This document shows positions 34,223 to 34,346 of a stretch of 64,000 bases of DNA, piece after piece. The notes under the pieces are model-generated. The model did no database searches. It was not told the origin of the DNA and worked only from the letters and a program-made list of their open reading frames with translations. The number at the start of each line of letters is the position of its first letter. The first letter of the stretch is position 1. The translations under genes were made by a program, and so were the position numbers. This DNA comes from a virus: positions 1 through 64,000 of IMG/VR virus record IMGVR_UViG_3300042446_001440, one strand, 5' to 3'.

Positions 34223-34255
34223 AAATATATTTTCTAGATATTTATTATAGTAAAA

Positions 34256-34336
34256 GGCTGCTGGCACAGTTCTAAAATAATAGGCTCAAGGTCCTTAGAG
34301 TATGCCAGTACTCTATCATGACTAAGAGCCTTTTTT
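34256..34336 (+). ncRNA. Two-hairpin kissing-loop leader RNA ending in a U-tract, upstream of an HNH gene
   Basis: Loop CTGGCA (34261-66) is the reverse complement of loop TGCCAG (34303-08); stems TAGAGTA/TACTCTA and AGGCTC/GAGCCT. Confidence 0.55.
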
Positions 34337-34346
34337 ATTTATTATA

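Follow-up and report, generated by a model that had tools for sequence, protein, structure and literature searches.

The stretch at 34238-34346 encodes, judging from comparative sequence analysis, a leader RNA with a real fold. It represents a rare version of a leader design that is widespread in phages of the Flavobacterium type, and covariation among its relatives indicates that the pairing between its two hairpin loops is genuine. Our window, i.e., the whole 64,000-nucleotide stretch of DNA analysed, comprises the first 64 kb of an 80-kb IMG/VR record derived from an A+T-rich lake phage, and the leader of this window (termed W) is situated downstream of a queE-like gene of the 7-deazaguanine cluster, which ends at 34222. 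Regarding its function, we give about even chances to W being the cis-acting 5′ leader of a self-contained homing-endonuclease cassette that acts as a promoter-proximal attenuator, its terminator hairpin being pre-organised by the 5′ hairpin; on the sequence evidence, the leader probably limits or gates the expression of the downstream gene.

An earlier note made from the letters of this DNA had described a promoter motif, two hairpins with complementary loops, a T6 run, and an HNH start 10 nt further on, and all of these elements were found in place (Table 1). The G-U pairs of W fall in hairpin 1 and in the GGTC/GACT segment of hairpin 2.

Table 1. Features of the leader, the endonuclease gene, and the cassette borders, with positions in the window.
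Feature	Position	Strand	Remark
Left border-repeat copy AAACCTTGAACGTCTAA, last queE codons (KTLNV, stop)	34206-34222	+	3 mismatches to AAACATTAAACGTATAA
Promoter-like box ATATTTAT	34238-34245	+	Read in the sequence
Promoter-like box, conserved stretch ATATTTATTATAG	34238-34250	+	Identical in L004, 12/13 in G016, the hairpins there differing
Hairpin 1: GGCTG (34256-60), loop CTGGCA (34261-66), CAGTT (34267-71)	34256-34271	+	
A/U-rich spacer CTAAAATAAT, 10 nt	34272-34281	+	A/U-rich spacer of 9-21 nt in all relatives
Hairpin 2, terminator-like, 50 nt: AGGCTC/GAGCCT, GGTC/GACT, TAGAGTA/TACTCTA	34282-34331	+	
Loop 2, TGCCAG	34303-34308	+	Exact reverse complement of loop 1
T6 run (34331-34336), then A/U-rich 10 nt to the start codon	34331-34346	+	
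HNH_3 + NUMOD3 homing-endonuclease gene, 190 aa, ATG 34347	34347-34919	+	Pfam HNH_3 E 9e-11, NUMOD3 E 5e-15
Second promoter-like box TATCTTTA, 3′ of the HNH gene	34931-34938	+	Read directly; putative promoter
Right border-repeat copy AAACATTAAACGTATAA, queE-end relic (KTLNV, stop), directly before GTG 35010	34992-35008	+	

The folding analysis gave a minimum free energy (MFE) of -28.2 kcal/mol for the W leader (z -3.2; 0 of 200 shuffles equally stable), compared with -24.0 kcal/mol for the opposite strand, and the duplex between the two loops (CTGGCA/TGCCAG) was calculated at -8.4 kcal/mol. Hairpin 2 by itself reached -22.7 kcal/mol (z -4.7), whereas hairpin 1 by itself, with two G-U pairs, was weak (-2.6 kcal/mol, z +0.1), so it is the comparison with relatives, rather than folding energy, that establishes hairpin 1 as real. 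A complement of at least 6 nt between two MFE hairpin loops arose in 8 of 1000 shuffles of the leader and, among natural tiles of 97 nt taken from the window, in 37 of 5114 (0.7%); the loop match of W alone, one case in 64 kb, could therefore be due to chance, a question settled by the independent relatives L004 and G016 and by the large sister family described below. The leader occurs once in the 80-kb record. Since the same stretch, identical and without any variation in the leader, recurred in contigs from two further lake-metagenome runs, which belong to different studies, W is not an assembly artefact. At its 3′ end, the G+C-rich stem AGGCTC/GAGCCT is followed directly by T6, as in an intrinsic terminator; however, hairpin 2 carries two internal loops instead of forming the compact, uninterrupted hairpin with a 3-8-nt loop that is typical of terminators, and a simple consensus terminator scan did not report it.

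When positions 33000-36000 were searched with covariance models, including those of the guanidine-IV and preQ1 riboswitches, HEARO, and small ribozymes, no relevant Rfam match was obtained at E values up to 10. The preQ1 riboswitch suggested by the que context was rejected on this basis, the tRNA/tmRNA reading was rejected because no tRNA overlaps the leader, and a group I intron was rejected because queE terminates at a stop codon of its own and a direct repeat flanks the insert. The locus had no match in the phage genome collection.

The closest relatives of the leader, which together with W form what we call subtype A, are L004 and G016. The L004 leader has the same box as W, a hairpin 1 composed of ATACTA-CTGCGAC-TAGTAT, and a hairpin-2 loop containing GTCGCAG; its loops CTGCGAC/GTCGCAG are complementary over 7 nt, a match attained by 3 of 1000 shuffles. 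The G016 leader is 83% identical to W overall, with a hairpin 1 of AGCTG-CGGCAA-CAGCT and the loops CGGCAA/TTGCCG, so that three of the six loop pairs are changed on both sides between W and G016 and the stems are the same. This leader is located at another genomic site, before a different endonuclease (MDYQKIY start, HHIRPK-type HNH + NUMOD3). G016 (L361:2128-2234, - strand) also bears a perfect 10-bp helix, in which TACAGTAAAA just after the box pairs with TTTTACTGTA-TG and reaches the A of the start codon; by its position, this helix could tie the two ends of the leader together and make the start inaccessible in read-through transcripts. A weaker A/U counterpart is present in W, between 34246-54 and 34338-46. 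The subtype is rare, amounting to three versions in all: two pattern scans of IMG/VR yielded no further subtype-A copies, the one for the subtype-A hairpin 2 returning G016 and 30 chance matches in coding DNA only, and a covariance model built from W and G016 (R1) recovered just its own two sequences in 33 genomes. The R1 alignments of L004, L397, and L455 were structurally wrong, and subtype-A covariation was consequently read by hand.

A second and far more common form of the leader was found through homologues of the G016 endonuclease. In two of them, L397 and L455, the same architecture is combined with a different hairpin-2 top, TGAGTAGAG-loop-CTCGAAAG, and the loop pairs are GGTCGGAG/CTCCGACC and TTGCGG/CCGCAA, respectively. 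Scanning IMG/VR for this hairpin-2 top alone returned 96 stretches, 69 of them distinct and with full flanks, and in 66 of these 69 an upstream hairpin of 4-7 bp presented a loop of about 8 nt that was exactly complementary (7-8 nt) to loop 2, with at least 20 different versions of the loop pair. Pairs were counted in a MAFFT alignment of 51 non-redundant sister leaders (A6), from which a covariance model (R2) was also built. Changes on both sides were observed in 7/7 pairs of the kissing helix (97.2% of cells paired), 5/5 pairs of hairpin 1 (91%), and 8/8 pairs of the lower stem of hairpin 2 (95.6%), compared with 33-40% of cells paired in slid controls of the whole structure, and none of 500 shuffles reached the observed pairing. 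As the search pattern fixed the hairpin-2 top only, the covariation of the kissing helix is not an effect of ascertainment. The folded molecule is the sense-strand RNA, as indicated by the one-sided use of U-G in one pair of the family (21 sequences, against 2 with G-U), the G-U pairs of W, and the better folding of its + strand. The tail 3′ of hairpin 2 is T-rich, with four alignment columns at or above 90% T (n = 51), and a small clade of four or five sister leaders has a broken U-run, TTACTTACTATT, and keeps the kissing fold. No Rfam match was found at ten sister loci at E values up to 1. The loop complementarity, on whose conservation the earlier note had made its reading depend, is kept with other letters in L004, G016, and the sister leaders, and the structured leader with covarying complementary loops and a terminator-like 3′ end that it had proposed is supported.

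The sister form contains an invariant core, UGAGUA-GAG / CUC-GAAAG (alignment columns 82-107), in which AGUA faces GAA; we take this arrangement, directly beneath the kissing loop, to be the consensus of a loop-E (sarcin-ricin, S-turn) motif. Variants of the leader are present in two cultured phages. In the Flavobacterium phage FCV-1 (about KY979235.1:40350-40456), the leader has the loops AGTAGTGC / GCACTAC, a GGG/CCC top, and T9; the gene that follows encodes a hypothetical protein, and its coding region matches the gene for NUMOD4-HNH_3 in L496. The leader of Cellulophaga phage phi19:1 (about KC821607.1:10350-10494) has the loops GTACGAC / GTCGTAC. One contig with a sister leader (L525, at 263-975 and 569-749) also carries a tRNA array and a permuted-tmRNA match that remained just below threshold, with 46.6 bits against a gathering score of 47 bits.

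In both forms, a promoter-like box immediately precedes a short 5′ hairpin (6-8-nt loop), which an A/U-rich spacer separates from a long hairpin; the tip of the latter is exactly complementary to loop 1, and it is followed by a U-run and, 15-60 nt past hairpin 2, by the start codon of a same-strand gene that often encodes a homing endonuclease. Homologues of the endonuclease behind the G016 leader, itself of the W type, are among the genes preceded by the sister form. In contrast, W, G016, and L004 lack the invariant core and have a regular apical stem of 5-7 bp instead; at this position, W reads AGAGTA-TGCCAG-TACTCT, a plain helix that shares only the GAGT before loop 2 with the core. In each of the three subtype-A loci, the top match of model R2 coincided with the leader in position and strand but was not significant, W scoring 17.5 bits (E 0.33 in 10 kb). 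Given the absence of the core and this low score, W is to be regarded as a separate rare variant and not as a member of the sister form. That the kissing contact survives in W although the invariant core has been replaced suggests that the contact between the loops is what chiefly matters for the function of this design.

When considering the genes behind the leaders, nearly all 69 sister copies were followed by a same-strand gene within 17-59 nt. Among 45 non-redundant proteins encoded there, approximately 55% were homing endonucleases, comprising NUMOD4 + HNH_3 (12), NUMOD3 (8), GIY-YIG (4), NUMOD1 (4), and I-HmuI-like (3) proteins, and the other genes included those for DUF6291, Prim-Pol, DUF3987 and BT4734-like primases, KilA-N, HTH, and replication proteins. 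The presence of replication, primase, and HTH genes in this remainder means that the RNA is not nuclease-specific, and a small RNA working or co-purifying with the nuclease, as the earlier note had envisaged, fits poorly with a sister form that precedes unrelated nuclease families (NUMOD4-HNH, another HNH type, GIY-YIG) as well as primase, DUF6291, KilA-N, and HTH genes. Four leaders (W, L004, G016, and G025) were found in 33 records of phages related to this one, each of them before an endonuclease gene. Most other endonuclease genes in these records have a box with a short leader or a hairpin with a box inside. The leader was absent from about 30 more distant relatives of the HNH-NUMOD3 type and from the window's two other endonuclease genes, so a general occurrence of the leader before HNH-NUMOD3 genes is not supported. 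Of the latter two, the GIY-YIG + NUMOD3 gene at 27687-28360 has a plain box at 27662, a 14-nt leader, and no kissing leader, and the NUMOD3 ORF at about 4100-4680 has neither a box nor a kissing leader.

Other kinds of leader were observed before endonuclease genes. Metagenome contigs with distant HNH relatives (L209, L211-L215, L219, and L233) show TATAAATA, presumably a T4-type late promoter, and then ACTC-N-GGAG(A/T)C directly before the ATG, a sequence predicted to form a hairpin that can sequester the Shine-Dalgarno site. In related phages (L451, L454, L463, and L490; phages G028, G005, and G014), endonuclease genes are preceded by a strong hairpin that ends in TTT before the ATG and holds the box in its loop, for example AGCCCTTTCG-TATATTTATAATAGAA-CGAAAGGGCT; by analogy, these hairpins follow the promoter-in-hairpin logic of T4 I-TevI.

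The earlier note had described the box as a promoter motif. Its strand and position are strongly biased, ATATTTAT occurring 20 times on the + strand and 4 times on the - strand, and 9/9 copies of TATATTTAT lying on the + strand, most of them 14-35 nt upstream of start codons; its number is at chance level (TATATTTAT, 9 observed against 8.8 expected). The box resembles what we take to be the Bacteroidota -7 box, TAnnTTTG, and the sister leaders have TATATTTG or TATCTTTG at the same position, presumably also of the Bacteroidota -7 type. The box pattern CTANATATTTATTATAG was unspecific, with at least 118 chance matches. Copies of (T)ATATTTAT in the window are located at, e.g., 3109, 7346, 8399, 10700, 24065, 27662, 37519, 48427, 59574, and 60139, mostly 14-35 nt ahead of start codons and several of them immediately 3′ of terminator-like hairpins. 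It is likely that (T)ATATTTAT constitutes the common promoter element of this phage, a TAnnTTTA variant of the presumed -7 box. Behind the HNH gene, TATCTTTA is considered promoter-like on the grounds that TATCTTTG occupies the promoter position in many sister leaders, and this second box could restart the transcription of the downstream que genes.

The HNH gene, like the leader, occurs only once in the 80-kb record. Its protein has twelve relatives (P0001-P0012) with 66-83% identity, two of which (P0005 and P0011) have called N-terminal extensions that reach into the leader; neither the metagenome scan nor the genome-contig scan yielded close relatives. Among the related phages found through queE, the gene follows queE only in the source phage and in L004, where it is 81% identical. 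In the 62 related phages without it, the leader is never present after queE, there is no terminator 3′ of queE, and the next ORF begins within 12 nt of the queE stop in 46 of the 62, typically as TAATATG; the queE end in these relatives is TTAAAYGTATAA, with the next gene directly after. Such presence or absence between conserved neighbours is characteristic of a free-standing homing-endonuclease cassette. Moreover, the HNH gene is followed by a relic of the queE end, and this, together with the absence of the leader from the HNH-less relatives, argues that leader and gene entered as one unit and form one inserted cassette. The idea in the earlier note that the RNA moves with the gene is thus supported, in the form of a leader travelling with the endonuclease gene as one cassette.

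The 17-mer AAACATTAAACGTATAA is exact at 34992 and at 35280 (35280-35296) and has 2 mismatches at 35452 (35452-35468), with 6 matches against 1.4 expected. The 17-mer lies at the end of the HNH cassette and of both small ORFs that follow, and in the related phages L033 and L074 the same duplication of the queE end follows small inserted ORFs; the repeat looks like a point of recombination or translational coupling in the stacking of cassettes. The queE end is GTCTAA in both HNH-bearing phages, versus GTATAA, GTTTAA, or GTATAG in the HNH-less relatives. If this is synonymous recoding at the likely cleavage site, it would agree with the endonuclease-bearing genome being immune to its own enzyme.

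According to the attenuator proposal, transcription would start from the promoter-like box of the cassette, a few bases before hairpin 1, which would fold first. Once loop 2 had emerged, it would pair with loop 1 (6 bp, about -8 kcal/mol) and hold the long, interrupted hairpin 2 together; it is this length and these interruptions that would make the kissing contact helpful for hairpin 2 to close in time. The G+C-rich base of hairpin 2 would then close ahead of the U-run and form an intrinsic terminator, so that most transcripts from the cassette promoter, as well as read-through from queE, would end at the U-run, and the HNH gene would be reached by only a fraction of the transcripts, or only by polymerase that is modified during some phase of infection. 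The second box behind this gene would restart the downstream que genes.

Several observations speak against the attenuator. Hairpin 2 is long, interrupted, and missing from the simple terminator scan; stable as it is, it has no obvious need of a helper. The sister leaders with the broken U-run retain the kissing fold, and termination therefore cannot be the only role of the fold. In addition, the GIY-YIG endonuclease gene of the same phage manages with a plain box and a 14-nt leader, which implies that nuclease genes here do not generally need such a brake. One rival is a post-transcriptional element, which we regard as rather unlikely, where the 5′ fold would protect the mRNA from 5′-end-dependent decay or limit ribosome access to the A/U-rich start and no termination would take place. 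Hairpin 1 does lie within a few bases of the presumed transcript start, the fold is kept in some sister leaders without a good U-run, the 10-bp helix of G016 (TACAGTAAAA/TTTTACTGTA) reaches the start-codon A and has its weaker A/U version in W, and T-even endonuclease genes are translationally controlled by hairpins (PMC2988022). However, such a role does not need the T-rich tail found in most members, hairpin 2 stops 15 nt before the AUG and leaves it uncovered, and the additional helix, rich in A/U, is conserved neither in L004 nor in the sister form. The order of promoter, short structured RNA, and terminator with U-run is equally that of a gate for a phage antiterminator, i.e., a strong promoter-proximal terminator like lambda PR′-tR′, which RNA polymerase would pass only after its modification by a phage factor or the binding of such a factor to the folded leader; recognition would rest on the kissing complex and, in the sister form, also on the conserved AGUA/GAA internal loop. 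Besides the lambdoid precedent (PMC7547250), this gate is favoured by the position of the sister form, which heads not only endonuclease genes but also replication, primase, and HTH genes, as expected for a shared timing signal, and by the proximity of invariant sequence to a freely varying loop code. Nevertheless, the W subtype lacks the conserved internal loop and no candidate antiterminator was identified, and we hold the gate to be unlikely.

A stand-alone small-RNA gene, with a promoter, a structured RNA of about 85 nt, and a terminator, whose product acts in trans, would account for the promoter-like box and the terminator-like end, and terminated leaders can become regulatory small RNAs, as exemplified by StxS (PMC7547250). 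Yet nearly all 69 sister copies have a same-strand gene 17-59 nt further on and the variable loops pair with each other, leaving no obvious free seed, which makes a gene of this kind very improbable. Hardly credible, finally, is an ordinary queE terminator with a chance loop match, or its variant in which the inverted repeat acts as DNA (an operator or recombination site). Hairpin 1 is indeed no more stable than shuffles, and 6-nt loop matches occur in 0.7% of natural tiles; but the loops are exactly complementary with different letters in L004, G016, and about 66 sister leaders, HNH-less relatives have no terminator after queE, and the stems covary and accept G-U pairs solely on the sense strand, so the reading is contradicted by covariation. 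Beyond the attenuator proposed for W, a bolder and quite doubtful generalization is that the leaders constitute a new class of phage riboregulator, in which termination depends on an intramolecular kissing contact with a private, fast-changing 4-7-bp "address". If this were true, each cassette would carry a switch that can be opened or closed separately, e.g., by a trans-acting RNA or protein competing for one loop, and Flavobacteriia phages would be able to time their endonuclease and replication genes individually.

The leaders bear on the control of selfish nucleases and early genes in lytic phages outside the T4 and lambda groups, to which Bacteroidota add a further puzzle because, to our knowledge, they do without Shine-Dalgarno-based control. 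Here, a compact RNA fold proven by covariation precedes many endonuclease and replication genes and is absent from Rfam; in the literature covered by our search, which was incomplete, such a leader was not found either. Its presence in cultured phage-host pairs (Flavobacterium columnare/FCV-1 and Cellulophaga baltica/phi19:1) offers a directly testable handle. W contributes a divergent form that lacks the conserved core and a clear comparison between phages with and without the cassette.

When compared to known systems, the nearest published device combining kissing loops with a terminator is the guanidine-IV (mepA) riboswitch, which likewise has two leader hairpins with kissing loops coupled to an intrinsic terminator (PMC11611296). 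In that riboswitch, the loops are conserved and the contact is ligand-dependent and favours the anti-terminator (PMC11611296), whereas in the W design the loop letters vary freely and no Rfam match exists; as the partner is the terminator-like hairpin's own loop, the kissing contact cannot compete with the terminator here. Promoter-proximal terminators also gate the lambdoid late genes, where PR′-tR′ (6S RNA / StxS) resembles W in having a terminator about 100-200 nt past the promoter and in giving a short RNA unless termination is overcome (PMC7547250); unlike W, it has no known requirement for a tertiary fold, is present in single copy before the late operon, and is Q-controlled. The PeSL cassettes of T4-like phages are, like W, short promoter and stem-loop modules at the borders of shuffled cassettes, but they form many repeats per genome and serve as recombination points (PMC4122927, PMC2839356). 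W is not such a unit repeated at many cassette borders of one genome: it is present in single copy, and the cassette-border repeat of the window is a different sequence, the queE-end 17-mer.

The T-even phages provide a parallel to the proposal made here. There, terminators (mobE, segF) and leader hairpins (at I-TevI/II/III, segB, Aeh1 mobE, and seg43(25)) keep the expression of endonuclease genes down, and a promoter restores the downstream gene (PMC2988022). In those leaders, the Shine-Dalgarno site is sequestered by one hairpin that also contains a late promoter, which lets late transcripts escape (PMC2988022). In W, by contrast, the box precedes the two hairpins, neither of which covers a ribosome-binding site, and what is conserved is a loop-loop tertiary contact; hairpin 2 ends 15 nt before the AUG, and just the weak A/U helix (34246-54/34338-46) reaches the start region. 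The T4-like promoter-in-hairpin design is nonetheless present in related phages before other endonuclease genes (L451, L454, and L490). Common to both systems are an RNA structure and/or an intrinsic terminator at or just before a mobile nuclease gene and a promoter for the downstream host gene behind the insert, and the rationale would also be the same, namely that a selfish nuclease is kept from disturbing the host operon. The attenuator proposed for W, which would end queE read-through, keep nuclease transcripts scarce, and allow the operon to be restarted, thereby parallels the arrangement at T4 mobE (PMC2988022).
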